The notes under the pieces: model-generated
What the model was told of the DNA's origin: nothing
Database searches by the model: none
What the model saw: only the letters and a program-made list of their open reading frames with translations
Virus record (IMG/VR): IMGVR_UViG_3300031162_001603
Coordinates: 253 to 64,252 of that record
Length of the DNA stretch: 64,000 nucleotides
Reading direction: 5' to 3' (one strand)
DNA from: a virus
Part shown: positions 12,122 to 63,921 of the stretch, piece by piece
Layout of the letters: each line of letters opens with the position of its first letter
Position numbering within the stretch: the first letter of the stretch is position 1
Position numbers and translations under genes: made by a program

Positions 12122-12862
12122 TTATAATTCATTTAAAGTTGTATATTTTTCTTTAGCACGAATATAATTTGATAACTCTACCTGCCTACTTTCGTTAATA
12201 GCTCCGTCTCTTGTAGTGTTAGATGCATTCCATATATAATGCACTTCTGATATGTGACGACTTCTATTACCACTTAATTCTAACATAGGTAGCATTACAG
12301 CTTGGTCTCCAGTTGTATCCAACCATTCTCCATCATCTCTTTTTAAATCTTTTTCATCAACCTTCAACAATAACTCTCTTCTCCAAGTTCTTAAGTGTGA
12401 TGCCAACCATCTGTGTTCTCTAAAAGAATTGCTATCAATAACCTCTTGTGGGTATGGCTGATAAATACTGGACACATCTCTGTAAGGAAACTCCTCGTAA
12501 GTCCCATATGTCATCCAGACTTCTCCAGAATTATATACATCATTTAACTTTTGTAACACCTTATTACTCTTAAGCCAATCATCCCCATCTATGGAAACGA
12601 TTATAGAACCTTCTTTTGCTTTTTTTGTAAGCCATAAGAAATTTGCAACCTGAGGTATTCTAACCTCATTTTGATAAACTTCTAAGTTATCAAAATCTTC
12701 AGCAAGTTTTTTAGAAATTTCAAAAGTATTGTCATCAGAAATAGCATCAACAAGAATTACATCAAAGTTGTCATACTTCTGAGTAACACAAGTACTTATG
12801 CATCTTTCAATCCAATCCTTGTGATTACAAGTATCTATTGCTATTGTAAAGTGATTGTTCAT
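12122..12862 (-). CDS. Glycosyltransferase family 2
   Basis: WIERCIST, IDGDDWL, SHLRTWR; paralogue of 12859..13605. Confidence 0.8.
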   Translation of the reverse strand: MNNHFTIAIDTCNHKDWIERCISTCVTQKYDNFDVILVDAISDDNTFEISKKLAEDFDNLEVYQNEVRIPQVANFLWLTKKAKEGSIIVSIDGDDWLKSNKVLQKLNDVYNSGEVWMTYGTYEEFPYRDVSSIYQPYPQEVIDSNSFREHRWLASHLRTWRRELLLKVDEKDLKRDDGEWLDTTGDQAVMLPMLELSGNRSRHISEVHYIWNASNTTRDGAINESRQVELSNYIRAKEKYTTLNEL

Positions 12863-13605
12863 TTATAGTCTTCTATTTGTTTCATTGGAGTTTTATTAGA
12901 CACATCCTTATGAACATCCCATTGAGCCTGTTGGTCAACTTTATCTTCAGAAATAGGATTATCTCTATTATAGATATAAAGAATCGTATCATTAAACTTT
13001 GTCTTTTCATGTCCAGCCATTTCCATAATTGTAAACATCATCGCTGTATCATATGACCAACGATAAAAATTACCTTCATCATCCTTAAGATGAGAAAAGT
13101 CTGGGTCTTGTTTTTCAATACTTTGATATAGACCAGCTCTGAAAGTTCTTAGGTGAGAAACTTTAAAACCTATAGTTCTTACATTCGCAAATTCCTCTGG
13201 AGTATAAGCTGATGCAAATCCTCTTCTACCATCTGTCCAACTTGCCTGACCATACATAATCCAACAATCAAGCTCTTTATATTGTTCATCAACATATTTA
13301 AGAACTTTCTTATTCGGGAACCAATCATCTCCATCTAATAAAACACAAATTGAATCTTCATTGCAATGATTCATTATAGCGTCATGTATATTCTCAAGAG
13401 CTGTTTTTCTAACTGTATTTTTTATACAAATAGCCCTATCATCATCATGAGGTAGTTTATCCCAAGAATCATCAGTAGACATATCATCAATAAATATCAT
13501 TTTGTAATTATCATACCTTTGAGATACTGCGGTTGCAATACATTGTTCCAAGAATTCTCCTGGGTTATAAAAAGGGATAATTATTACGATTTCATTATTT
13601 TCCAT
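12859..13605 (-). CDS. Glycosyltransferase family 2
   Basis: IIIPFYN, FIDDMSTD, LDGDDWF, SHLRTFR. Confidence 0.85.
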   Translation of the reverse strand: MENNEIVIIIPFYNPGEFLEQCIATAVSQRYDNYKMIFIDDMSTDDSWDKLPHDDDRAICIKNTVRKTALENIHDAIMNHCNEDSICVLLDGDDWFPNKKVLKYVDEQYKELDCWIMYGQASWTDGRRGFASAYTPEEFANVRTIGFKVSHLRTFRAGLYQSIEKQDPDFSHLKDDEGNFYRWSYDTAMMFTIMEMAGHEKTKFNDTILYIYNRDNPISEDKVDQQAQWDVHKDVSNKTPMKQIEDYK

Positions 13606-13616
13606 ATTTCCAAATT

Positions 13617-14228
13617 TTAACTTTGTTGTTCATCATCTTTATTTGTTAATTCATTAAGATATTCGCTTAGTCTGCTTATAACATTTTGACCTTCTTCATC
13701 AAGCTCTGCGCTAACTGGGTATACGCACTCTACCTTAGATTCGCTTTGTACTGGAATAAATAATATCTTGAATCCTGGTATTTTTCCAACAAATTTTTCA
13801 ACATCTTGTATAAATAATTCAATTTCCATGCGTTCCATGTTGTCGGTGTTTACATAAAACGCTAAAACAGCATTGTCAACATGATTTTGCTTAAGTAATT
13901 CTTTTTCTCCAAAAATAGCATATTTCAAAAAACCTTTTTCTGCTGCTGCTTCTAAAAGAAGACTTTCGAAGTCAAGCTTTAAATCTTGTTTTTCCCTGAC
14001 CCTTCCAAGGGTTTCCTTACAAAGAGCGTAGAAATATTTCTTTACCCACGAATCTTCTATATCACAAAACTTATCTTCTGACATATCTGACATGTTAGCA
14101 TATAATCTAAATGTTTCGTGAGCATCCTTAAGTAGAGACGTCATTTGTTCATCAAGAAGCTCTACAATTATAGTAGGAGCTCCTAACTTCCTTCTGGCAC
14201 GTTCTATTGTTTTTGTAGCATCAATCAT
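13617..14228 (-). CDS. Truncated gp13-like neck paralogue with a C-terminal portal-clip-like segment
   Basis: RRKLGAPTIIVELLDEQ and WVKKYFYALCKETLG align by eye with the N- and C-terminal blocks of 32351..33541. Confidence 0.7.
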   Translation of the reverse strand: MIDATKTIERARRKLGAPTIIVELLDEQMTSLLKDAHETFRLYANMSDMSEDKFCDIEDSWVKKYFYALCKETLGRVREKQDLKLDFESLLLEAAAEKGFLKYAIFGEKELLKQNHVDNAVLAFYVNTDNMERMEIELFIQDVEKFVGKIPGFKILFIPVQSESKVECVYPVSAELDEEGQNVISRLSEYLNELTNKDDEQQS

Positions 14229-15213
14229 TTTCTTCTTTTTGTTTTACTATTTCCTGAAATTTATCGAAAATTTCATCTATTTCATATTTTTCTTCTTCAG
14301 TAGCTTCATCCCATCTTTTTCCGAATTTCTTTATTGCAACTTTATCAAGAGCAGATGTTTCTACTGATAAGTTTCCAAAATCAAGTTTTTGATGACACCC
14401 TTCTATATTAGATAAATCTATTGAATCTAGGGTAGCAAATTTACCTTCCAAAAATTCTGCATTCATTATTTTTCTCCTAACTCTTGCTTCACTTTTCTTA
14501 TAAGCCATCTCCATATCATCTTCAATAGACTGCTGAACTCTTCCAGCAGGAGCATTTACTAAAGCGCTTCCCTTATAAGATATCATAAAGTTTCTTGGGA
14601 ATGATTCTGTAAAATCAAAAAGACCTACTTCAAGCTCTTCTACGTTTACAAATGTTGTTTTCCTAACAAGCTTATAAATATCCTTTCTTCTAAATATATG
14701 ACCATTCATTGAGAATGGGTATCCAAAATCAAGATAACGAAGTGTCCAATCCCACTTCATACAGTTGTTTCCGCAATATTCCATATCAAGTATTACATTC
14801 TCTGCACCAAGAGTATAGCACTTAGTAGTATTCTCTCCTAATCTAAGAGAAAAACAAACTACATCATCGTCTGATTCTATTTGATTGGTGATGTCTGCGA
14901 GTTTAACTTCTCTATATATAATGTCATCATCTAGAAAGAAGCATGAGTATTTATGGTCTGTTTTTAATAAACCAAGAACACGGTCTTTAAATTTAATATC
15001 ATCAATAATTAATTGAGATACAAACTTTACATCTTTATATAACGAATCGTTAATAACAAGACTGTACCCCTCAGCGTAACAATCTTCTGTATGACTAATT
15101 AATACAGTTAAATCAAATACATCTTTAGCATTTTTAATAGCACTATCAAGAAATATCTTAAGCTGTGCTGCATTGTCTTGTGAAAAAATAATTCCGTTAA
15201 TCTTTTGACTCAT
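14221..15213 (-). CDS. Putative GT-A glycosyltransferase
   Basis: IIFSQDNAAQL, FFLDDDIIY, FGYPFSMNGHIFR. Confidence 0.5.
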   Translation of the reverse strand: MSQKINGIIFSQDNAAQLKIFLDSAIKNAKDVFDLTVLISHTEDCYAEGYSLVINDSLYKDVKFVSQLIIDDIKFKDRVLGLLKTDHKYSCFFLDDDIIYREVKLADITNQIESDDDVVCFSLRLGENTTKCYTLGAENVILDMEYCGNNCMKWDWTLRYLDFGYPFSMNGHIFRRKDIYKLVRKTTFVNVEELEVGLFDFTESFPRNFMISYKGSALVNAPAGRVQQSIEDDMEMAYKKSEARVRRKIMNAEFLEGKFATLDSIDLSNIEGCHQKLDFGNLSVETSALDKVAIKKFGKRWDEATEEEKYEIDEIFDKFQEIVKQKEEND

Positions 15214-15535: not shown

Positions 15536-15670
15536 GATTAAATTTTTAGTTTTTTATTGATTTATACATTTTCTTTCTATTTATATAAAAAAGCAATAGA
15601 AAGCTTTTGAAGATAAAAATAAATAATTGCTATAAGAAAATCAATTTTTTTGAATATTTATTAGAAACAA

Positions 15671-23630: not shown

Positions 23631-24869
23631 ATGTCAGAAGAAGAATTAAGAAATCTAATTAGTGAAAGCTTAAAAGAGGGAGCACTAGATGAATCATTTA
23701 ATATAGATAAAGAAGTTAGTCACATATATGATTACGCTTATGTTGATTTTAATGGTGAAGAACTTGAGGTTGATTTAGAGGCTGCTATATCTTGGGATGA
23801 AGGTCATCCAATAGTTGATGAGGTAAAAGCTATTAACTTAGAAAATTTTTCAGAAGAACAAAAAAACGCTATAAATAACTATATTAATTCAGATGAATTT
23901 AATAATGAAAAAGAAAGGATTAGTGAGGTTGCAAGCGAGGTTGCAAGAGAAGCTTATCTTGAATATTTAGATGATAAAGCAGGGATACGTGAAGGTTTTT
24001 CTGAAGAAGACCAAGAAATTAATACAGATGAATTTGAAGATTCAATTGGAAGTGGTTTAGATGATTACGAAGGTGATATGAATCTTGATTTAGAGACAAT
24101 GCCTATGTCTGCTGTAGATATGCCAATTCAAGATAAAGCTTATCTAAAGTTAGGGGGAGAAGAGTCTTATGATGATGAATTTTCTGATGTTGATGGGTAC
24201 ACAAACAATGGTGATAATTACGAGGGTGATTACCAAGATGATAATTCTGTTTCTCCTGGATATTTCAATGAAAGCGATGATGAGAATTATATAGACGACA
24301 TTGGAATGGCTAAAAATCAAGCGCTAGGTGATTATAATCCTATAGAAGATGCTCTTCACTATGTTGGAGGGATAGAAGTATGGGATAGCTTATCTAGGTT
24401 AGACAAAGATGCTATATTAGCTGATTTGGAAAGAGATTTCGAATCTTCTTTACATGAAAATAATAAGACCGTTAAAGTAACTGTTGACGAACTACAGAAA
24501 ATAATCAAAGAGGGTGTTGCTAAATTACATAAGCAATCTCTTATTGAAAATAGAATTGAACAGATTAACAATGAATTAAATAATCTTAGTAACCCACAAG
24601 CTTGGCAAGATGCTCGTGAAGATGCTCTTTCTCAAAGAGCGAAACAAAATTTAAATTGGGAACATGTAACTACAAGAGAAAAACTACAAGAAGTAAGTTT
24701 TAAAGATGTAGCTTCAATGATTCCAGTGAGTACGCCAAAAGATACAGCAACTATAGAGGCAAATACACAATGGGAAAAAGTTCAGAAAGAAAGTGTTTCA
24801 GATATAATGGGACGTGCTTCAGATTTAATGGCGGAAGCTAAGGAAAAATACAATAAAATTTCAAAATAA
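23631..24869 (+). CDS. Very acidic hypothetical protein, putative head-core protein
   Basis: ELRNLISESLKE and ELQKIIKEGV...RIEQINNEL motifs; directly upstream of the protease. Confidence 0.65.
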   Translation: MSEEELRNLISESLKEGALDESFNIDKEVSHIYDYAYVDFNGEELEVDLEAAISWDEGHPIVDEVKAINLENFSEEQKNAINNYINSDEFNNEKERISEVASEVAREAYLEYLDDKAGIREGFSEEDQEINTDEFEDSIGSGLDDYEGDMNLDLETMPMSAVDMPIQDKAYLKLGGEESYDDEFSDVDGYTNNGDNYEGDYQDDNSVSPGYFNESDDENYIDDIGMAKNQALGDYNPIEDALHYVGGIEVWDSLSRLDKDAILADLERDFESSLHENNKTVKVTVDELQKIIKEGVAKLHKQSLIENRIEQINNELNNLSNPQAWQDAREDALSQRAKQNLNWEHVTTREKLQEVSFKDVASMIPVSTPKDTATIEANTQWEKVQKESVSDIMGRASDLMAEAKEKYNKISK

Positions 24870-32350: not shown

Positions 32351-33541
32351 ATGAGTGTATTTTGCGCAGAGGGGTGTCTTACTGGTATGACCAGTACAGA
32401 GAAAAATCAGATTTTCCGAAGAATTAGGAGAAAGATTGGTGCGCCTGTTATGGGGGTGGAATTAGTTGATGAGCAGATAGAGGAATGTATCTGTGAAGCA
32501 ATAGAGGAGTATTCTTCATACATAAATGACTGGGTTCTTAGAAATAGGCTTGGAGAGATGCTTGGTCTGCCTTCAGAAGTGGATTTTACATTAAAATATG
32601 TTTCCAATAGTCTTTATTTCGAAAGGTCTTATGCGACTGATATAGGTGAGCAAATAGGTCTTGGAGCTAACGGAACAACGGAGGTTAAAACAACTTCTAT
32701 AAATTTAACTGCTGGTACTCAAGATTATAGTGTACCTGAGGGAAGAGAGATTTTAGACATTCTTTGGTTTACTCCTTCTTTCATAAATTTATTTGGACTT
32801 GACCCTTTTGCTAATTCAAATATCGCATTTAGTGAGTTTGGAGCTTCATTTGCAGGGCATTCTCTTTATTCAGTAATGCCTGTTTTTGATACAATAATGA
32901 CCGCTCAGGCTGCTGAACTTAGAAATAGAGTAAGGGGTTCTGAATATCATTACATAATCAGGCCTGGACCAGATGGCACAAAAACAGTTAAGTTATTTCC
33001 AGTACCTAGGTCAAGCGGAGCTGTTGCTGGAGGTAATAGTAATATGGGAATTGGTGGTGGAGCTGGTACTCCAGGTACTGTGTTTTATACATATAGAGAT
33101 AGGGTTGGATATTATGGTAATTCTAGTTTTAGTGGTATGAACGCTAATCCAGGGTATTCAGCAAGTACAGAGACAGAACAGGGTAATGGTTTGGTTTCAG
33201 GCCCAGGTGATGCTCAACTTAATTATATCAACTGGAATCAACTTAATTCTGTTGCTCAAACTTGGATTAAAAAATACGCCCAAGCACTTGCTAAAGAGTT
33301 ACTTGGTATTGGTATTAGAGGTAAGTTTAATGGACAGCTACCAATACCTGGGGCTGAATTAACATTAAATAAAGATGACCTTATTTCAACAGGTAGGGAG
33401 GACCAGCAAAGACTAATGGATAAGCTTGAAAAAGACCTTGAGGAGCTTTCTTATGATAGAATAATGGAAAAAAGAGCTGCAGTGCAAGAGGCTGTAAATA
33501 GAACTCTTATGTACGTTCCTATGAAAATATTTACATACTAA
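32351..33541 (+). CDS. Neck protein (T4 gp13-like)
   Basis: RRKIGAPVMGVELVDEQIEECI, WIKKYAQALAKELLG..RGKF...PIPGAELTLN. Confidence 0.85.
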   Translation: MSVFCAEGCLTGMTSTEKNQIFRRIRRKIGAPVMGVELVDEQIEECICEAIEEYSSYINDWVLRNRLGEMLGLPSEVDFTLKYVSNSLYFERSYATDIGEQIGLGANGTTEVKTTSINLTAGTQDYSVPEGREILDILWFTPSFINLFGLDPFANSNIAFSEFGASFAGHSLYSVMPVFDTIMTAQAAELRNRVRGSEYHYIIRPGPDGTKTVKLFPVPRSSGAVAGGNSNMGIGGGAGTPGTVFYTYRDRVGYYGNSSFSGMNANPGYSASTETEQGNGLVSGPGDAQLNYINWNQLNSVAQTWIKKYAQALAKELLGIGIRGKFNGQLPIPGAELTLNKDDLISTGREDQQRLMDKLEKDLEELSYDRIMEKRAAVQEAVNRTLMYVPMKIFTY

Positions 33542-54566: not shown

Positions 54567-57500
54567 ATGGCAGAAGAACAAGAAAATTTCAGCATATTTG
54601 GAGGCGTTAAAGACGCAATAAATAAGAATAAAAAAAGAACCCCAATTACAACCGACCCTGGTGTTGTGCAACATAGAGGTGGTGGAGATAATCTTATTCG
54701 CCCTGGAAGTAATATTGAAAATGTACAACAGCAATTTCTAGACTGGCAGGTTAATAAAATTGCACATGACCTTTATACAAGAACTATTTATTATGATACC
54801 GATAGGATAAATGCCTACCAGGATTTTAGAGCCATGGATATGTCTCCTGAAATCGCTGCTGCTCTTAATATTATGAGAGATGAATGTATCACTAGAGGAG
54901 ATAAGGGTAAGATACTTGATATTTTTTCAGAAAACTCAAGAGTTAAGGATTTGCTTGAAGATTTATTTTACAATAGACTTGATATAGATTTTGCATTAAA
55001 ACTTTGGATTAGAGATTTATTAAAATACGGAGATTTCTTCCTTCAATTACACATTGATAAAGATGAAGGTATTTATGACGTTATGGCTCTTCCTTCAGAG
55101 GAAATTCATAGAGAAGAAGGTTATGAGGGTAGGACTGATGATGTAAGGTTTAGATGGGAAACTACTGGAGATTATTTTGAAGATTGGCAAGTTGCTCACT
55201 TTAGATTATTAGAAGATACAAGAAAGCTTCCGTATGGACGTTCTATATTAGACCCAGCAAGAAAGCTTTGGAAACAACTACAGCTCGCTGAAGATTCAAT
55301 GCTTGTATATCGTATTACAAGAGCTCCAGAAAGAAGGGTATTCTATATTGATGTTGGTAACTTAGAGCATGCTGATGTTGGACAATTCATCCAACAGTTC
55401 CAGATGCAACTTAAGAAACAACCTATTGTTGACCAGAAAACTGGTAACATAAATATGAAGTACAATCCAATGAACGTAACAGAGGATTATTTCATTCCAA
55501 TGAGAGCCGATAGGTCATCAAGAATTGAAACACTTCCAGGAGCATGTCTTGCACTTGATACAAAAATTGATTTACTTGATGGTAGAAGTCTTGAGCTTAA
55601 TGATATTATTAAAGAACATGAGGAAGGTAAAGAGTTGTGGAGTTATTCAATAAATCCAGATACAGGAAAAGTAGTTCCAGGAAAAATAACTTGGGCTGGA
55701 GTTACAAGGAAAGACGCAAAGGTTGTTAAAATTACCTTGGATAATGGAGAAACTATAACTACAACTCCTGACCATAAGTTTCCAACTAGATTTAATGGAA
55801 TTAAAGAAGCAAAAGACCTTGTTGAAGGGGAGTCTATGTGGGCTTTTAACAAAAAGTTTGAGAAAATTAAAGGAGCAGGTAAAAAGAGAAAGAGAAACAC
55901 TTATGAGATGATATATGACCATTCAGAAAATAAATGGTTATATACTCATAGAATTATCGCAAATTATTTTAGAGACTTAAACTTACATGAGGAATTTGTT
56001 CATTTAAAAGAAGCTAGAGAAGAATTGAAAAACACTATTCATCATAAAAATTTTAATAGATATGATAATAGTCCAGATAATCTATGTTTCATGAATTCAA
56101 GGGACCATTTTTATTATCATCAAGATAACATGAAAAGGTTAGAGGAATTTTTTGGTGTTGAAAAAGTTGAAGAATGGAAGGCTCTTAGGAGAGAGGGGAT
56201 AAAGGAATATTGGAATAATATATCTGAAGAAGAATTGAATAATAAAATAGAAATAGCAAAAATAAACTTCAAAAAAGGTTCAGATAAATTGCAAGAATTA
56301 CTTTTAGACCCAGAATACAAAAAGGAGTTTTACAAAAAAACCAGCAAAACTCTTAAAATAGTTAGAGGGACAGATAAGGCAAGAAACAAGCAAAGTGAAA
56401 TTACTAAAGAGCAATGGAAAGGTGAAGGTTTAAGAAATGCTATAATTGAGAAACAAACAATTAAGTATTCTGATAAAATGCTTCAATTTGTATCAAATAG
56501 ATTTAAAGATGGAATGTCGGCTGGAGAAATATTGATAGATATAAATTCAGAAAACTCTTTATTTATGTCTGAATTTGATTCTTTGAATAAAGGAAATGCT
56601 CAACTTAAAAAGATGAAAAATGGGTTTACTCATAATAACCTTGTTAAGATGATGAAATCATTTGGATATTCTAACTGGAGTGACTTCAAAAATAAAGCTG
56701 AATATTTTAATCATAAAATAGTTTCTGTAGAATTTTTATCAGACACTCAGGACACTGGAACCATTACAATTGATGGCAATGAAATGTATCATGATTATCA
56801 CAATTTTGCCCTTTCAGTTGGTGTGTTTACAAACAATTCTAATCTAGGTGATATTCAGGATATAGAGTACTTCCAGAATAAATTATTTGCTTCACTTCAA
56901 GTTCCTAAGAATTATTTAAACTACGGTGAGAGTCTTCCAGGGGGTTCAACATTATCGCAACAAGACCTTAGGTTCTCAAGAACTATTAACACAATACAAC
57001 AAGCAGTTCTTGCTGAGCTTAAAAGAATAGCAAACATTCATCTTTACTTCAATGGATTTAAAGATGAGATAGATAACTTTACGCTTACGCTTGCAAATCC
57101 ATCTACACAACAAGAATTGTTGAAGTTGGAAACAATGAAAGCACGTATTGAGGTATTTAAGGAAATGTTCTCTGCGGAGGCAACATCTCCAGTATCTTAT
57201 GTTTGGGCAATGGAAAATATTCTTGGTTTCTCTAAAAATGAAATTAAACTTATTCTTAAACAGAAAAAAGTTGAGAAGAAAATATTTGCTGAAATTGACT
57301 CATCTATTGAAATGTACAAGAAAATTGGACTTTTCAAAGAACTTGATGAGAAGTTTGAGATTGAAGGTGCTGAAGAAATGATGGCAGCTGAACAAGGCGG
57401 TGAAGAAGGTGGAGATGAAGGTGGTGACATGGGCGGAGGCGGAGGCGGCTTCGGTGGTGGAATGGACATGGGTGGAGACCTTGATATGGGAGGTGAAGAC

Positions 57501-57890
57501 TTTGGAGAAGAAGGTGGAGAAGAAGCGCCAGCTGAAGAGGCTCCTCTTGCAGAAAACAAATTCAACAAAGCTATGAACATATCTGATAGGTATACTTCTG
57601 GTTTAATTAACGAGTTGCTAGGGGCAGATGAGTCTCCTAAAAAGAATAATATTGAAGATAATGCCTTAATAAAAAGAGGGAGTCAGATGAGGCTTGAATC
57701 TGAGAAGCTAATGAAGAGGATGAATAATAGCGACATTATCAATAGAGGGGTTGGAAAATCTGTAATTCAAGAAGAAGTTAAAAAAACTAGCTCATTAATT
57801 CAAGGTTCAGAAAAACTTGGTCAAGATAGTGATAGTTTAATGAGTGAAGTTGAGAAATATTTAAGAACTAGAAAGAAAGGCGATGTTTGA
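54567..57890 (+). CDS. Portal protein (gp20-like) containing an intein
   Basis: YGRSILDPARK.WKQL.LAEDSMLVYRITRAPERRVFYIDVGN, EDYFIP, IETLPG, DIEYFQNKLF..L.VP. Confidence 0.95.
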   Translation: MAEEQENFSIFGGVKDAINKNKKRTPITTDPGVVQHRGGGDNLIRPGSNIENVQQQFLDWQVNKIAHDLYTRTIYYDTDRINAYQDFRAMDMSPEIAAALNIMRDECITRGDKGKILDIFSENSRVKDLLEDLFYNRLDIDFALKLWIRDLLKYGDFFLQLHIDKDEGIYDVMALPSEEIHREEGYEGRTDDVRFRWETTGDYFEDWQVAHFRLLEDTRKLPYGRSILDPARKLWKQLQLAEDSMLVYRITRAPERRVFYIDVGNLEHADVGQFIQQFQMQLKKQPIVDQKTGNINMKYNPMNVTEDYFIPMRADRSSRIETLPGACLALDTKIDLLDGRSLELNDIIKEHEEGKELWSYSINPDTGKVVPGKITWAGVTRKDAKVVKITLDNGETITTTPDHKFPTRFNGIKEAKDLVEGESMWAFNKKFEKIKGAGKKRKRNTYEMIYDHSENKWLYTHRIIANYFRDLNLHEEFVHLKEAREELKNTIHHKNFNRYDNSPDNLCFMNSRDHFYYHQDNMKRLEEFFGVEKVEEWKALRREGIKEYWNNISEEELNNKIEIAKINFKKGSDKLQELLLDPEYKKEFYKKTSKTLKIVRGTDKARNKQSEITKEQWKGEGLRNAIIEKQTIKYSDKMLQFVSNRFKDGMSAGEILIDINSENSLFMSEFDSLNKGNAQLKKMKNGFTHNNLVKMMKSFGYSNWSDFKNKAEYFNHKIVSVEFLSDTQDTGTITIDGNEMYHDYHNFALSVGVFTNNSNLGDIQDIEYFQNKLFASLQVPKNYLNYGESLPGGSTLSQQDLRFSRTINTIQQAVLAELKRIANIHLYFNGFKDEIDNFTLTLANPSTQQELLKLETMKARIEVFKEMFSAEATSPVSYVWAMENILGFSKNEIKLILKQKKVEKKIFAEIDSSIEMYKKIGLFKELDEKFEIEGAEEMMAAEQGGEEGGDEGGDMGGGGGGFGGGMDMGGDLDMGGEDFGEEGGEEAPAEEAPLAENKFNKAMNISDRYTSGLINELLGADESPKKNNIEDNALIKRGSQMRLESEKLMKRMNNSDIINRGVGKSVIQEEVKKTSSLIQGSEKLGQDSDSLMSEVEKYLRTRKKGDV
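55545..56837 (+). mobile_element. Contiguous 431-aa intein with HNH-type endonuclease in the portal gene
   Basis: TLPGA|CLALDT...TTPDHKF (block B)...HHKNFNRYDNSPDNL (HNH)...HNFALSVGVFTNN|SNLGD. Confidence 0.92.
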
Positions 57891-58136: not shown

Positions 58137-58168
58137 AAAATCCACTCTAATTTAGAGTGGATTTTTTT
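58137..58168 (+). terminator. Intrinsic terminator
   Basis: aaaatccactcta-att-tagagtggatttt. Confidence 0.85.
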
Positions 58169-58171
58169 ATT

Positions 58172-58205
58172 TTTGAAACTTTATTATTAATTTATCGTAT
58201 ATTTG
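58172..58205 (+). promoter_or_regulatory. Bacteroidota sigma70-type promoter for dnaE-N
   Basis: TTTG (58172-75), 22-nt spacer, TATATTTG (58198-205). Confidence 0.6.
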
Positions 58206-58219
58206 TAAAAACAATTATA

Positions 58220-60475
58220 ATGTATATAGTATTCGATACCGAGACAACTGGAATGGCACTTAGTTTTAGTGCGCCAATAACAGATTTCAATAACTGGCCA
58301 AGAATGGTTCAGATAGCTTGGAAAGTATTTGATGCCAATGGCATAGAGACAGATTCGCAAAATTTAATAATAAAACCTAATGGCTATGTTATTCCAGATG
58401 AAGTTATAAAAATCCATAGAATTTCTAATGAAAGAGCAAAAGCTGAAGGGATACCTTTAAGGCAGGCTCTTGATTTGTTTTCAATAGCAGTTAAAAACAA
58501 TAAATATTTAATTGCACATAATATTACATTTGATGAGAATGTTGTTGGTTGTGAATTATTGAGAGAAGAGATGCACAATTACGTGCAAGATATTCAACAT
58601 ATTGATACAATGAAGTTGACTACAGAGTTTGTAGCAATTCCAAATGCAAGAGGTAGAAGTGGATTTAAGTACCCAAGTCAAACAGAGCTTCATACTAAAT
58701 TATTTGATAAAGGATTTGAGGATGCGCATGATGCACTTGCAGATGTTACAGCTCTTTCTAAGTGTTTCTTCGAACTTCAAAGAAGGAATATTCTTGGGTT
58801 TAAAGAAAAAGAGGAAATTGTTACTACAGAATCTCTCTCAGACTTTGCGCAAGAAAATCCAGCAGAAATAAATACAGAATCTCTATCAGACTTCGTACAA
58901 GAAAAGTCAATAGAGATACAAGTACAAAAAAATCAAACAAATTTAGCTCCACTTGGACTTCATACGTTTCACTCAATACTTGATGGAGCTGGTTCAGTTG
59001 ATGTATATATAGATAAGGCTCAATCCTTAGGTCACACATCAATGGCAATAACAGATAATGCAACTTTATCTGGTACATTTGAATTCTTTCAGAAGTGTAA
59101 TAAAAAAGGTATTAAGCCAGTTTTTGGTATTGAAATATTCTTGAATGATAACATTGGGTTATTTGAAGAGAAAGCATTGGAGGGAGATAATTTTAAGGTA
59201 AAGATTTTCATTAAAGACAAAATAGGATATAGCAATCTTAATCACTTGTTGTATCTTGCAAATACAGAAGGTTACTTTAAAAAAGAGGGTAGGATAACTA
59301 CTGAGTGGCTTTTAAAGTATAAAGAAGGGCTTATCGTGTCTACTTCAGGATTGGATAGCAAATTAGCGAGTATGGCTCTTAGAGGGCGTGAAAAAGAAGC
59401 TGAGAACTATATAAACATGCTTAGGACTGAATTCGGAGAAGATTTGATAATAGAATTCAAATTTAGTAGATTCCCAACTCAAAAACAATACAATAATTTC
59501 CTTATTAAGATGATGAGGAAGTACAACATAATGCCTGTTGTTAGTAATGATACGTATTATCCAGAAAAAGATGATTCAATAATTCAAGATATAGTTACAT
59601 CAATAAAGCAACATAGGCCTATAGATAAATGTTTTCTTAAAGAGAATAGGGAGCTTTGGTATTTTGGTAGTGAAGATTATAGGACAATGAACGTTAGGCA
59701 TAACTTCAATTATCCAGATAATTTTCTTGAACTTTGTATGGCAAATACTTTAAAGGTTGCTGACAAGTGTAATTTTGAATTTGAAACAGGTGAGGAGAAG
59801 TATCCGAGATATGAGCCAACACAAGATATAGTTGATTATTTTAAGACTGATAAGCCAGATGAAATAATCGTAAAACTTGCATTTGCTAAGCTAAAGCAAA
59901 AGATAAATAAGTATAAAGAAAATGGCATAGTCAATATGACTGATGAAAAAGTTAAAGAATATGTTGACCGACTTAATTATGAGTTAAAAGTAATTGAATC
60001 AAAGAAGATGCTTGATTACTTTCTTGTAAACTGGGAGATAGTAAATTATTATAGAGGAACTGGTCATGACATCGGGCCTGCTAGGGGAAGCGCTGCTGGA
60101 AGTTTGCTCTCTTATTGCCTCGACATTACTAAAATTGACCCGATAAGGTTTGACCTTTATTTTGAGCGTTTTCTAAATCCAGAGAGAAATTGTCTAACAA
60201 CAAGTTGTAATGTTATGCTTAAAGATGGTTCTTATAAAAACATAGTTGATGTTGAAGTTGGTGACCCAGTTCAGACTGAACATGGACTTGGAACCCTGGT
60301 TCAGAAGCATGAAAGAGAATTGAAGGAGGGAGAAAATGTTTTTGAGATAGAAAGCGAAGATGGCGCAAAAATTCAATTAACAGGTTGTCATATTGTTCCT
60401 GTGTTTAGGGGTGGGGAAAGAATCGAGGTTCGTGTTGATGAAATTATAGAAACAGACCAATTGTTTGTATTTTAA
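58220..60475 (+). CDS. dnaE: DNA polymerase III alpha, N-terminal half (DEDDh exonuclease, PHP, start of palm) fused to N-intein
   Basis: FDTETTG/AHNITFD/HDALADV; HTFHSILDG..AITD; GPARGSAAGSLLSYCLDITKIDP..YFERFLNPERN|CLTT. Confidence 0.93.
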   Translation: MYIVFDTETTGMALSFSAPITDFNNWPRMVQIAWKVFDANGIETDSQNLIIKPNGYVIPDEVIKIHRISNERAKAEGIPLRQALDLFSIAVKNNKYLIAHNITFDENVVGCELLREEMHNYVQDIQHIDTMKLTTEFVAIPNARGRSGFKYPSQTELHTKLFDKGFEDAHDALADVTALSKCFFELQRRNILGFKEKEEIVTTESLSDFAQENPAEINTESLSDFVQEKSIEIQVQKNQTNLAPLGLHTFHSILDGAGSVDVYIDKAQSLGHTSMAITDNATLSGTFEFFQKCNKKGIKPVFGIEIFLNDNIGLFEEKALEGDNFKVKIFIKDKIGYSNLNHLLYLANTEGYFKKEGRITTEWLLKYKEGLIVSTSGLDSKLASMALRGREKEAENYINMLRTEFGEDLIIEFKFSRFPTQKQYNNFLIKMMRKYNIMPVVSNDTYYPEKDDSIIQDIVTSIKQHRPIDKCFLKENRELWYFGSEDYRTMNVRHNFNYPDNFLELCMANTLKVADKCNFEFETGEEKYPRYEPTQDIVDYFKTDKPDEIIVKLAFAKLKQKINKYKENGIVNMTDEKVKEYVDRLNYELKVIESKKMLDYFLVNWEIVNYYRGTGHDIGPARGSAAGSLLSYCLDITKIDPIRFDLYFERFLNPERNCLTTSCNVMLKDGSYKNIVDVEVGDPVQTEHGLGTLVQKHERELKEGENVFEIESEDGAKIQLTGCHIVPVFRGGERIEVRVDEIIETDQLFVF
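60191..60472 (+). mobile_element. Split intein N-fragment (94 aa)
   Basis: CLTTSCNVML block A, LTGCHIV block B (TxxH), then stop. Confidence 0.9.
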
Positions 60476-60514
60476 AAGTTTTTATCTATATTTATAGATA
60501 TAGATTTTATAGTT

Positions 60515-61594
60515 ATGAAAAAAGAAGAATTATTAAATATTGAATTTGATGGACAAAGCGATTTGATTGCTGGTTTGTGTGATTTTTTTGAATTTAAGAA
60601 AGCAAGCAATAGTGAGAAAGAAAATTGGCCATATAATAATAAGCTAATCGTTTCTATTGATAATATAATTGGAAAGGAGTTATATAATAGAGGAGAGTTT
60701 ATTGGAATTGTTGAAGATTGTTATTTTGGAAAAGGGCCAAGAGGGCATAGTGCTGTTTTAATCAAATCTAAAGAGCAGGAATATTCTTTGACAGAATCTA
60801 AAGTTAAAGTATATAATAAATTTTCGGAAGAAGAAGAGTTAATTGACCTACACCCATCAAGAAAGGGAGTTAAGTTTTGGTCAAATGGACACATATTATC
60901 TGAAAAACACTATAAGTCCCTTTACTATAAAACAAGGGAATATAGAAGTCAATATGAAAAAACTTTGAATGAAAACTTAGGAACAACTGGCCTAACTGCG
61001 CCAATACAATCAAAGCAGATTAAAGATAAGATTTCTAATACAATGGAGGATAGGTATGGTGTTAATTGGTTTTTAGAAAGAGGTAGTCATTATTCCGCTG
61101 TAACAATGACAATGCAAGATAAGTTTGGAGTAGATAATTTATTTTATTCATATGAATGGCAATTACAGAATTCTAAAAATGTAAATAAAAATCTTGGAGA
61201 ATCTTCTAAATTAGAAAGAGAGATTATATCAGAATTAGAAGAGGTAGGGTTAAGTAAGTCTTTTCATTATAATTCTGATAGTGGTCAAAAAATAATAGTT
61301 GTAAATAAAAGAAAGTTCTACAAGCTTGATTATTATAATGAAGAAAGTAATGTGGTTATTGAGATAATGGGAGACTATTGGCATTGTAATCCAAATATTT
61401 ATAGTCATGATTTTTATCATAAAAATAAGAAAAAATTAGCCTCAAAAATTTGGATAGATGATAGAAAAAGGAAAAATGAAATAATTAATATCATTAATTG
61501 TAGTTATATAGAGGTATGGGAGAGTGATTGGAAAAACAATAAGGAAAATGTGTTAAAATATATAAAAAGTCAAATAGAAGCAAATAAATTATGA
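60515..61594 (+). CDS. Free-standing Vsr/DUF559-like homing endonuclease between the split dnaE halves
   Basis: RYGVNW/KFGVDN repeats, LDYYNEESNVVIEIMGDYWHCNP, IWIDDRKR, IEVWESDW; late motif at 60491. Confidence 0.8.
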   Translation: MKKEELLNIEFDGQSDLIAGLCDFFEFKKASNSEKENWPYNNKLIVSIDNIIGKELYNRGEFIGIVEDCYFGKGPRGHSAVLIKSKEQEYSLTESKVKVYNKFSEEEELIDLHPSRKGVKFWSNGHILSEKHYKSLYYKTREYRSQYEKTLNENLGTTGLTAPIQSKQIKDKISNTMEDRYGVNWFLERGSHYSAVTMTMQDKFGVDNLFYSYEWQLQNSKNVNKNLGESSKLEREIISELEEVGLSKSFHYNSDSGQKIIVVNKRKFYKLDYYNEESNVVIEIMGDYWHCNPNIYSHDFYHKNKKKLASKIWIDDRKRKNEIINIINCSYIEVWESDWKNNKENVLKYIKSQIEANKL

Positions 61595-61743
61595 AGCTAT
61601 CAAAAATTAAATCAATAAATAAAATTGAATACAACAATAGAGTTTATGACCTATCTTTTGATAAAGATAATCTTTTCTTCTGCTCAAGTAATTCTTTAGA
61701 TAAATGCTGTAACTCATTGATTTCCAGTGTTTTAATACACAAT
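61591..61743 (+). mobile_element. Split intein C-fragment (51 aa)
   Basis: MKLSKIKSI...RVYDLSFD..NLFF...VLIHN|S. Confidence 0.9.
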
Positions 61744-63921
61744 TCTCCTCCCGATATTGACATTGACTTTATGAATGGGACTGATGATATAACTGATAAT
61801 TTTTTATATGAGAAGTATGGAAAAGAGCGTGTAATGTCTGTTGGTACTTTCGGTACTTTTTCTGAAAAGAATACAATTAAAGATGTTGTTCGAGCATATC
61901 AAGGAAAAGAAGCTACTGGATTTGGTTCTGATGTTTTTGAGCTTACCAAAGAGATGCCAGACTTTTTAAAGTATAACGACACTCTTAGGCATTGGTTTGA
62001 AACATGGCCAGATAAGCCAGAGTGTACTCCAAGGGTTAGAAATTGGATTAGAGACCCAAGGAACAAGGAAATGATTGAAGTAGCTTTAAAGTTACATGGC
62101 AATATTAGGGGAGTTGGTCAGCATGCAGCTGGAGTTGTAATTACTCCAGGTCCATCTTGGGATTATGTTCCAACAAACGTTATTGCATCTAATGGAAATG
62201 TTGTATCAGCATTTCAAGAGGCTGATAAGTCAGGTAAGGATTTATCTGCTATTGGTATTTTGAAGTTAGATAGGTTGAAATTAATGACTTTGAATGTAAT
62301 CAAGGAAACAATTGAAATTGTAAAAACAACAAAAGGAGAGGATATAACTGGTAAAGTGGATTATGTTGACCTTGAAGATGAGAATCTTTTTATTGAACTT
62401 AGGCTTGGATTAAATCACGGTATATTTCAATTTGAGAGTAGTGGGATGAATAATCTTATTAGAGGAATGCAGGTTGAGAAATTTGAAGAACTTGTTGCTT
62501 GTAATGCATTGTATAGGCCAGGTCCAATGGGTATTGGAGCTCACGAAGAGTTTATAGCGAATAAGTTTAATCCAGAGAAGATTAACTTGGTTCATCCAGC
62601 TCTTGAACCTATATTAAGAGAAACGAATGGAGTACTTGTATTTCAGGAACAGCTTATGTTTATCGCTGATAGGATTGGTGGAATGGGTCTTGGTAAGGGA
62701 GATAATCTCCGTAGGTACATGGATAAGGCAAGTAAGATTATTGCCAGACATTCTGCAGGAGAAAAGCTAACAGAGAGTGAATTAAATAATCCAAACTGGA
62801 AAGGTTTTCAAGAGTACTGGAATATGTTCCTTGATGGAGCGGCTGCTCAAGGGTATGATAAAAGCGAGGTTGACAAGATTAAAGATTGGGTAATTCAGTA
62901 TCTTGGATATTCGTTCAACAAGAGTCACAGTCTGAGTTACAGTTACTTAGCTATGCAAACCCTGTATTTAAAGCATTATTATCCTACTGAATTTTATACT
63001 GCTTTATTGAATCATCCAAAGTCTGGGCCAAAAGAGAAACAGCAGATTTGGATTGCCTCAGCAATTGCATCTGCAATGTCAAAAGGTATTGTTATAAAGA
63101 GGCCTTCAAGAAAGTCTGGATGGGAATGGACAATGACAGGAGGCCGTGAAATATCTATGGGATTTTCTGGAATTAATGGATTTGGTGAAATTGCATATGA
63201 AGAGATGTGTTCTCTTGTTAATGGAGTCCAAGTGAAAGAGGGGGAAGATAAGAAGACTCTTGAGACAATAAGTATGAGTGTGTTTTTAAGGCTTCCATTT
63301 AGTAAGTTTAACAAGACAGCGTTTACCGCTTGTCTAAAGGCTGGCGTGTTTGATGATTGGGGAGATTCAAGAGAGCAGCTTATTGCTATTAAGGCGAAGA
63401 AAAAGAAGAAGAAAGAGATAGCTAATCAAACTATTTTGTTTGATATGAATGACCCTTCTTTTGATATACCAATAAAGAGTGATATTAAAAAGTTCCCTCC
63501 GACAACGGAAACAGAAAAGAGAGTGGACTTTATAGAAGTTTGTAATTTTGACCTTGAAAAGATTAAGTACATACTTGAGATAAAGAAAGATGTAAATGAA
63601 AGAGCTAAGAGAGATAAGATAGTAGAAACAATAGTTAATTTCGATGACGATGATTTTTATATATTTGTTGTTGAGTCATTTAAAATGATTCAAGGAAGAA
63701 CTGGAAAAGAATACTTAACAATGAAGGTTGGGGATGGGATTAGTTATTCTACTCTTAGAGCATTTGACCCTACTGCAAAAGAATTATATCCTTTACTTCA
63801 AGCTAATGGTATTTATGTAGCAGAATTTGAGAAAAACAATAAAGGATATATAAACTTCAAGAGAGGAACGAGAATCGTAAGAGTTGATAAAGACATGAGT
63901 AAAAAAGAGATAAATGAGTAA
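61591..63921 (+). CDS. dnaE: DNA polymerase III alpha, C-terminal half preceded by C-intein
   Basis: HN|SPPDIDIDF catalytic aspartates, GQHAAGVVI, ILKLDRLKL, GIFQFES, ALYRPGP, TNGVLVFQEQLM, YSFNKSHS..Y, YPTEFY. Confidence 0.93.
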   Translation: MKLSKIKSINKIEYNNRVYDLSFDKDNLFFCSSNSLDKCCNSLISSVLIHNSPPDIDIDFMNGTDDITDNFLYEKYGKERVMSVGTFGTFSEKNTIKDVVRAYQGKEATGFGSDVFELTKEMPDFLKYNDTLRHWFETWPDKPECTPRVRNWIRDPRNKEMIEVALKLHGNIRGVGQHAAGVVITPGPSWDYVPTNVIASNGNVVSAFQEADKSGKDLSAIGILKLDRLKLMTLNVIKETIEIVKTTKGEDITGKVDYVDLEDENLFIELRLGLNHGIFQFESSGMNNLIRGMQVEKFEELVACNALYRPGPMGIGAHEEFIANKFNPEKINLVHPALEPILRETNGVLVFQEQLMFIADRIGGMGLGKGDNLRRYMDKASKIIARHSAGEKLTESELNNPNWKGFQEYWNMFLDGAAAQGYDKSEVDKIKDWVIQYLGYSFNKSHSLSYSYLAMQTLYLKHYYPTEFYTALLNHPKSGPKEKQQIWIASAIASAMSKGIVIKRPSRKSGWEWTMTGGREISMGFSGINGFGEIAYEEMCSLVNGVQVKEGEDKKTLETISMSVFLRLPFSKFNKTAFTACLKAGVFDDWGDSREQLIAIKAKKKKKKEIANQTILFDMNDPSFDIPIKSDIKKFPPTTETEKRVDFIEVCNFDLEKIKYILEIKKDVNERAKRDKIVETIVNFDDDDFYIFVVESFKMIQGRTGKEYLTMKVGDGISYSTLRAFDPTAKELYPLLQANGIYVAEFEKNNKGYINFKRGTRIVRVDKDMSKKEINE

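Follow-up and report, generated by a model that had tools for sequence, protein, structure and literature searches.

The closest described counterpart of the gene reported here is the neck protein gp13 of phage T4 (Ad2; PF26809 Phage_T4_gp13, phrog_211; PDB 9lu4 and 9mkb). In that protein, helices 1 and 2 together with the final two make up domain I, domain II anchors the protein to capsid and portal, domain III provides the fibritin site, and a C-terminal arm goes in between the portal clips (PMC12929629). Domain I has been described as similar to the small single-domain adaptors (PMC12929629). Proteins of that kind, such as SPP1 gp15, HK97 gp6, the Mu neck subunit (5ydn) and the phiCD508 neck protein (9gb5), comprise a helical bundle of ~100 residues; they serve as the sole, essential adaptor, carry a portal-binding tail and are encoded in the head-neck cluster. 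Another point of reference is the clip of the T4-type portal protein gp20 (PF07230; PDB 3ja7 and 6uzc).

We analyzed a 64,000-nucleotide stretch of DNA (‘the window’) that represents most of a 64.8-kb fragment of an uncultured T4-like jumbo phage, with an estimated completeness of 24%. Its plus strand carries genes for the capsid (27146), neck (32351-33541), sheath (35652), terminase (52776) and an intein-bearing portal (54567), and its minus strand is occupied by a long glycan operon. The third gene of that operon (13617-14228, minus strand), preceded by genes for a thioredoxin and a GT-A-like protein, is intact, encodes 203 amino acids (including every motif quoted for it in the original prediction), and is composed, in this order and without an export signal, of a gp13 domain I, a linker, a minimal portal clip and a C-terminal helix. 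The upstream neighbor (14221-15213, minus strand), assigned as GT-A-like by a DDD motif and without a Pfam match, overlaps the chimeric gene by 8 nucleotides; the downstream neighbor, a GT2 glycosyltransferase (12859-13605, minus strand), follows after an 11-nucleotide gap, and the two are the fixed 5' and 3' neighbors of the gene in related phages. Paralogues of both halves of the chimera are encoded in the same window: the full-length neck/adaptor gene (plus strand; 396 amino acids, phrog_211), with domain I encoded at ~32402-32530 and 33239-33436, is the paralogue of the N-terminal half, and the clip segment of the portal (residues 258-324; 55338-55538, plus strand, within the intein-containing gene at 54567-57890) is the paralogue of the C-terminal half.

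Relative to T4 gp13, the chimera has the domain I bundle and sequence motifs in common, lacks domains II and III and the portal arm, and carries a clip in the position of that arm; unlike T4 gp13, it is a second gene in addition to an intact, full-length neck gene. It shares the ~100-residue helical bundle with the small adaptors, but it is an extra paralogue bearing a clip that derives from a T4-type adaptor by internal deletion, and its gene lies apart from the structural cluster and on the opposite strand, in a phage that also has a full neck gene. A strand-GNL-helix unit and the next two strands of the gp20 clip align with the chimera at the profile level, whereas its clip comprises only ~52 residues, lacks the stem, wing, crown and hairpin, and is followed by an added C-terminal helix. 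The chimera can be described as a derived paralogue of gp13 whose architecture is new, and we are nearly certain of its anatomy: two trimmed virion-connector modules, joined long ago and kept under selection.

Two further features of the carrier phage were observed in passing. The intein of the portal gene, which contains an HNH nuclease, begins directly after the clip, and the region 58157-63921 encodes a DnaE-type polymerase split over two ORFs with intein pieces and with a 359-amino-acid gene in between. The core gene set of moraphages includes a family B polymerase and polymerase I (PMC12619734); the carrier fragment, ~24% complete, encodes the split DnaE-type polymerase, and we do not assign the carrier to that group.

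The original prediction had matched residues ~8-45 to the neck protein N-terminus and the following block to its C-terminus, with a middle of ~250 residues missing. This part was borne out: residues 6-45 aligned to residues 20-59 of the window's own neck protein and residues 53-76 to residues 297-320 (phmmer E 8e-9 among 40 window proteins), with a 7-residue linker standing where the neck protein has ~237 residues. A profile of the family matched T4 gp13 at residues 18-45 and 238-294 (E 2e-6), and all members searched (29/29) matched phrog_211. An AlphaFold model of the chimera (mean pLDDT 81) superimposed on T4 gp13 (9lu4) with a Z score of 12.7 and an rmsd of 2.2 Å over 98 residues at 30% identity; the next row of the same search had a Z score of 8.3, and many phage neck and adaptor chains followed at Z 6-8, including those of Mu and phiCD508 at about 7. 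Pfam gave no match for the whole chimera and only scattered weak ones for members of the C-domain family, and a Foldseek search of the PDB with the whole model returned nothing at E <= 0.001.

The N-terminal half corresponds exactly to gp13 domain I, a four-helix bundle. Residues 4-46 (14091-14219, minus strand) form helices 1 and 2 and the first gp14-facing loop (T4 residues 17-31), and residues 53-106 (13911-14072, minus strand) form the last two helices. The swing/anchor domain II and the fibritin-binding domain III (T4 residues 54-239) are missing, with ~7 residues in their place, as is the C-terminal portal-binding arm (T4 residues 301-309): the likeness stops at helix 4, and the chain continues into the clip. 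The first gp14-facing loop retains its sequence motif and is among the best-conserved regions of the family (conservation 0.73). The second (T4 residues 266-279) is kept at 19-21 residues in 36 of 41 aligned members; it is 9 residues short in the window copy, between codons 80 and 81 (~13988/13989), and is also shortened in four others.

The C-terminal half contains a portal-clip-like strand-helix-strand-strand unit (residues 120-171; 13716-13871, minus strand), from which ~16 residues corresponding to a hairpin excursion of the portal are gone, followed by a helix (residues 183-200; 13629-13682, minus strand) that is common to stand-alone clip-like proteins and has no match in the portal. The tail (...FIPVQSESKVE) had been said to resemble the phage's own portal. 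On a single sequence that resemblance was borderline (blastp E 0.017, a score reached by 8 of 2000 shuffles), and we dropped the pairwise match as evidence, a spurious hit in the portal intein being equally good (E 0.024). The profile comparison that had been named beforehand as a refuting test found the similarity: an alignment of 30 C-domain sequences matched 22 portal clips in hhalign at 96.7-97% (E 1e-10 to 4e-10) over 48 columns, joining both originally noted blocks across the ~16-residue gap. Column-shuffled portal templates (60 in all) scored at most 5% and a reversed template 0.1%, and among 74 window ORFs the portal scored 91% and the next best about 2%.

Searches in the opposite direction agreed. 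Among ~5000 ORFs, the C-domain profile matched the fetched portals at the clip with E values of 5e-7 to 8e-4, the best match outside the family and the portals being 0.035; in a six-frame search of the phage's own genome, the portal was the sole further match (E 1.3e-5); and a second profile covered the entire clip, with E values of 3e-9 to 7e-7 per genome. Against the PDB, the best natural match of the C-domain profile was T4 gp20 residues 284-310, which was weak (E 0.46-0.75). In structure searches, predicted portals recurred at TM scores of ~0.43-0.56, and VIA searches with the C-domain monomer gave Z scores of at most 4.5 with no solved portal among the matches. Clip strands of portals pair between subunits, which is probably why a search with a monomer did not retrieve solved portals. 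With family profiles, the C-terminal half is clearly a shortened portal clip, a homology that rests on sequence profiles.

The chimera cannot be a working neck or portal protein: the parts responsible for capsid, fiber and portal attachment and the DNA channel are gone (the match to the portal is limited to the clip, and a protein of 203 residues has no portal stem, wing or crown), and intact genes for both proteins are present. It is predicted to self-assemble. Prediction with four copies gave a score of 0.66, against 0.01 for the best control, with contact agreement between runs of at least 57% and pLDDT of at least 70; the threshold had been calibrated with two copies only, not four, and 20 of 30 proteins solved as one-chain pairs reached it, as did 1 of 23 single chains. 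Each copy used two opposite faces, chiefly of the gp13 bundle together with some clip-strand contacts, as would be expected of a ring. The copies are predicted to pack head to tail like adaptor rings, such as the dodecamer of T4 gp13, and the result may itself come from the likeness to solved adaptor rings.

Thirty proteins of the family are 50-100% identical, and more were found down to about 30%. We collected 86 proteins in total, of which 44 have both modules, 35 the gp13 core only (mostly 109-143 amino acids, several of them fragments) and 7 the clip only. In 12 loci, at identities down to 30%, the fusion lies between a GT-A-like and a GT2 gene as it does in the window; the whole 20-kb block around it, which includes unrelated genes, is equally syntenic. 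Four genomes carry a full-length neck gene (396-398 amino acids) on the same contig as the chimera, and no copy of the chimera was found in two near-complete genomes whose necks belong to a more distant lineage. In one locus, the slot between the two retained neighbors is taken by a fusion of the clip with an unrelated domain and has no gp13 part (P0086; L266:6001-6648). The slot accepts small accessory genes.

Several other small genes and domains were noted around this slot. The C-terminal part of P0086 is homologous to a 137-amino-acid ORF located directly behind the chimera in another locus (L140:5699-6112; E 2e-16), and near-identical genes for GIY-YIG-like endonucleases (211-213 amino acids, assigned by eye) lie between the chimera and the GT2 gene at L140:6109-6744 and L143:1655-2296. 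Eight members (P0010, P0019, P0023-P0025, P0029, P0030 and P0032; for example L002:10001-10810) have an extra C-terminal domain of ~60 residues. Neither this tail nor the P0086 C-terminal part matched a structural protein, and the tail had no PHROG match. At the end of the glycan operon in a further locus, an ORF that runs off the sequence (L142:16034-16624, plus strand) starts with a copy of major capsid residues ~399-479 (phmmer E 5e-16) and continues in frame into a GDP-mannose-dehydratase-like N-terminus; this is either another virion-fragment gene or read-through. A 200-amino-acid ORF elsewhere (L136:3419-4021, minus strand) includes a 62-residue piece resembling capsid residues 242-304 (E 6e-7).

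Both modules also occur alone. Stand-alone clips were found in tandem among non-glycan genes (L138:9717-10279) and in two uncultured huge phages of 735 and 635 kb (LR756501 and LR745206; at about L221:4000-4290 and L223:5000-5230), and the Atlas contains several viral clusters of clip-like shape with lengths of 81-133 amino acids. These small portal-clip-like genes constitute a family in its own right, and a search for longer clip fusions returned the gp13 fusions and one other only. Stand-alone gp13 cores (L222:544-879, L084:10001-10348 and L264:129-512) have differing contexts, either immediately downstream of a major capsid gene or upstream of a gene of ~255 residues (HAD-like by eye), and the L084 copy is near glycan genes. 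In a tblastn search of a phage collection, no cultured phage contained the fusion or a mini-gp13; full-length necks were found, as were clips in the two huge phages. A tree of domain I (118 columns) placed all 21 full-length necks on one side of a single branch (97/91) and the free and fused short forms, intermixed and with unsettled branching, on the other; being an unrooted tree of few columns with spliced rows, it suggests that the short forms are an old lineage. Small free genes exist for either module, and the modules are re-joined.

A sequence motif, TATTTAT, that may bear on when the chimera is made is present ~90 nucleotides above the first gene of the operon (15619-15625, minus strand). 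A sense-strand copy lies ahead of 19 of the 29 leading genes, including those for capsid, protease, tube and terminase, and an antisense copy ahead of three; the copy above the glycan operon is kept in 8 of 10 relatives. A sigma-70 scan gave no excess over shuffled sequence. TATTTAT is probably the late promoter of the carrier lineage, the copy above the operon being a putative one, and we infer that the chimera is expressed late, together with the glycan operon. Two additional observations concern the motif itself: in the window between 15671 and 61594 it is located on the sense strand, 12-47 nucleotides above the starts of many genes, and its reverse complement is the T4 late-promoter core.

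The original prediction had allowed that the gene might be decayed in relatives. It is conserved and intact there, and its substitution pattern indicates purifying selection, with a dN/dS of 0.13-0.29 for unsaturated pairs (0.29-0.67 for the clip part), as compared to 0.07-0.16 for the GT2 neighbor and 0.11-0.28 for the GT-A-like neighbor. Against two relatives (G001 and G013), the chimera is only 35% and 43% identical overall (40-54% in the gp13 core and 35-40% in the clip), whereas the core of the real neck is 81-97%, the neck 87-89%, the real clip 92-94%, the gp14-like protein 76-77% and the capsid 88% identical. It is among the most divergent of the shared genes, and every identified structural gene diverges far more slowly; the flanking GT2 gene, at 65-86% identity, is much more conserved. 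The clip helix is its least conserved element (0.34). Against L139 and L140, dS of the chimera (0.40-0.43) is under half that of its neighbors (0.9-1.05), which hints at allele exchange. A 412-amino-acid gene before the prohead protease (23631-24869) was seen to be highly divergent among close relatives as well (33-49% identity).

We tentatively prefer the possibility that the chimera is a late-made connector mimic used in conflict, since it retains the core folds, turns over quickly, shuffles its modules and has a patchy presence. Made late with the glycan operon, and not as a load-bearing part of the virion, it would keep the junction itself (an adaptor core with the clip above it, in one chain) and mimic the portal-neck junction in conflicts with host sensors or rival phages. 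It might titrate host receptors for the core folds of portal and portal adaptor, or it might join the portal/neck assembly of a co-infecting phage and poison it, having diverged from the parts of its own phage. That the conserved cores alone are kept while every virion-anchoring element is lost agrees with such a role, as does the failure to find the gene in the two near-complete, more distant relatives. The persisting purifying selection, the hint of allele exchange and the predicted self-assembly are counted in its favor as well, as is the existence of bacterial receptors for the portal (Avs4 and Avs11) and for the portal adaptor (Avs12) that bind the core folds (PMC13581612). A precedent by role, and not by homology, is DSAD1, a small phage inhibitor of DSR2 that competes at the sensor's binding site and is a known form of counter-defense (PMC11087589); there, too, a small phage protein is set against a virion protein for a host sensor. 

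Several points weigh against this reading. Isolated core folds usually activate the Avs receptors and are bound as monomers (PMC13581612), so that it is not evident how a self-assembling copy would inhibit them. Loosely constrained evolution of a repurposed scaffold would also explain fast divergence around conserved core residues, dN/dS of the GT-A-like gene upstream is similar when larger distances are compared (0.21-0.28), and the chimera resides in one fixed operon slot, not among variable anti-defense genes. The chimeric portal/neck mimic of the original prediction is upheld in its anatomy, by the profiles and the superposition on T4 gp13; a role as an assembly decoy or regulator would be plausible. 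A broader version, in which the lineage builds dedicated connector mimics from a two-module kit, free or fused, as decoys of STAND receptors or poisons of rivals' head completion, we regard as doubtful.

The alternative that survives best, although we consider it somewhat unlikely, is a scaffold for the glycan pathway, in which an oligomer of the chimera organizes the neighboring glycosyltransferases or presents them to virion substrates, and the connector likeness reflects ancestry only. The invariable pair of flanking genes at 12 loci, the translational coupling to both (the 8-nucleotide overlap and 11-nucleotide gap), the gp13 core near glycan genes in L084 and the late-type motif on the operon are what such a scaffold would lead one to expect. 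Against it, unrelated genes over 20 kb are equally syntenic, and the flanking GT2 gene is much more conserved than the chimera. Furthermore, stand-alone clips reside among non-glycan genes (L138), and the L266 slot has dispensed with the gp13 half while retaining both neighbors. The related proposal of an adaptor that brings glycosyltransferases to the particle is argued from gene position only, and is weakened by loss of the portal-docking arm.

A role in the phage's own neck assembly, as a chaperone or timing factor that blocks premature or wrong docking at the portal, is in our judgment unlikely. The chimera might hold gp14 through the gp13 loops, or its clip might occupy the C-terminal arms of gp13 and gp14, or both. 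In its favor, the arms of both proteins insert between the clip helices in T4, where the host protein Hfq plays such a role and necks assemble wrongly in its absence (PMC12929587); the well-conserved first gp14-facing loop, the second loop kept in 36 of 41 members and the late-type motif are likewise compatible with it. The clip helix, which is the arm-binding element in T4, is however the least conserved part of the chimera, the second loop is 9 residues short in the window copy, and the gene was not found in two near-complete relatives. Regulation of the phage's own assembly, as originally suggested, is a poor fit to the rates of divergence, the chimera having drifted to 35-43% identity between relatives whose supposed partners stay at 76-94%.

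An accessory virion ring, such as an extra collar or a second connector-like ring made from recycled modules, would make direct use of the predicted head-to-tail self-assembly and of late expression. Paralogues do serve as components of the particle in T4-like phages, as illustrated by gp23 and gp24. We nevertheless think it quite improbable: the chimera diverges faster than every identified structural gene, is located outside the structural cluster on the opposite strand, and varies in domain content among close relatives. The idea that it is the functionless debris of a decaying duplicate, to which the loop deletion here, the shortened loops in four others, the highest divergence and the variable tails might point, is largely refuted and very improbable in light of dozens of intact full-length members down to ~30% identity, a dN/dS well below 1, the retained fold (Z 12.7) and the separation of the short forms from full necks in the tree (97/91).

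The literature searched (with most subscription papers outside its scope) contained no description of the chimera and no report of phage counter-measures built from portal or adaptor core folds, and the host receptors that sense portal and portal adaptor by those folds have only just been described. Genes of this type are an annotation trap, being labeled ‘neck protein gp13’. The free gp13 core, the free clip and their fusion provide small, well-folded and naturally diverse candidates for assays of receptor toxicity and of portal-neck assembly. Should the chimera be a decoy or poison, the very folds that are sensed would have been turned into a class of counter-defense. Whether or not it acts in this way, its existence shows that the core of an adaptor and the clip of a portal can be cut out of their parent proteins, kept under selection and re-joined.
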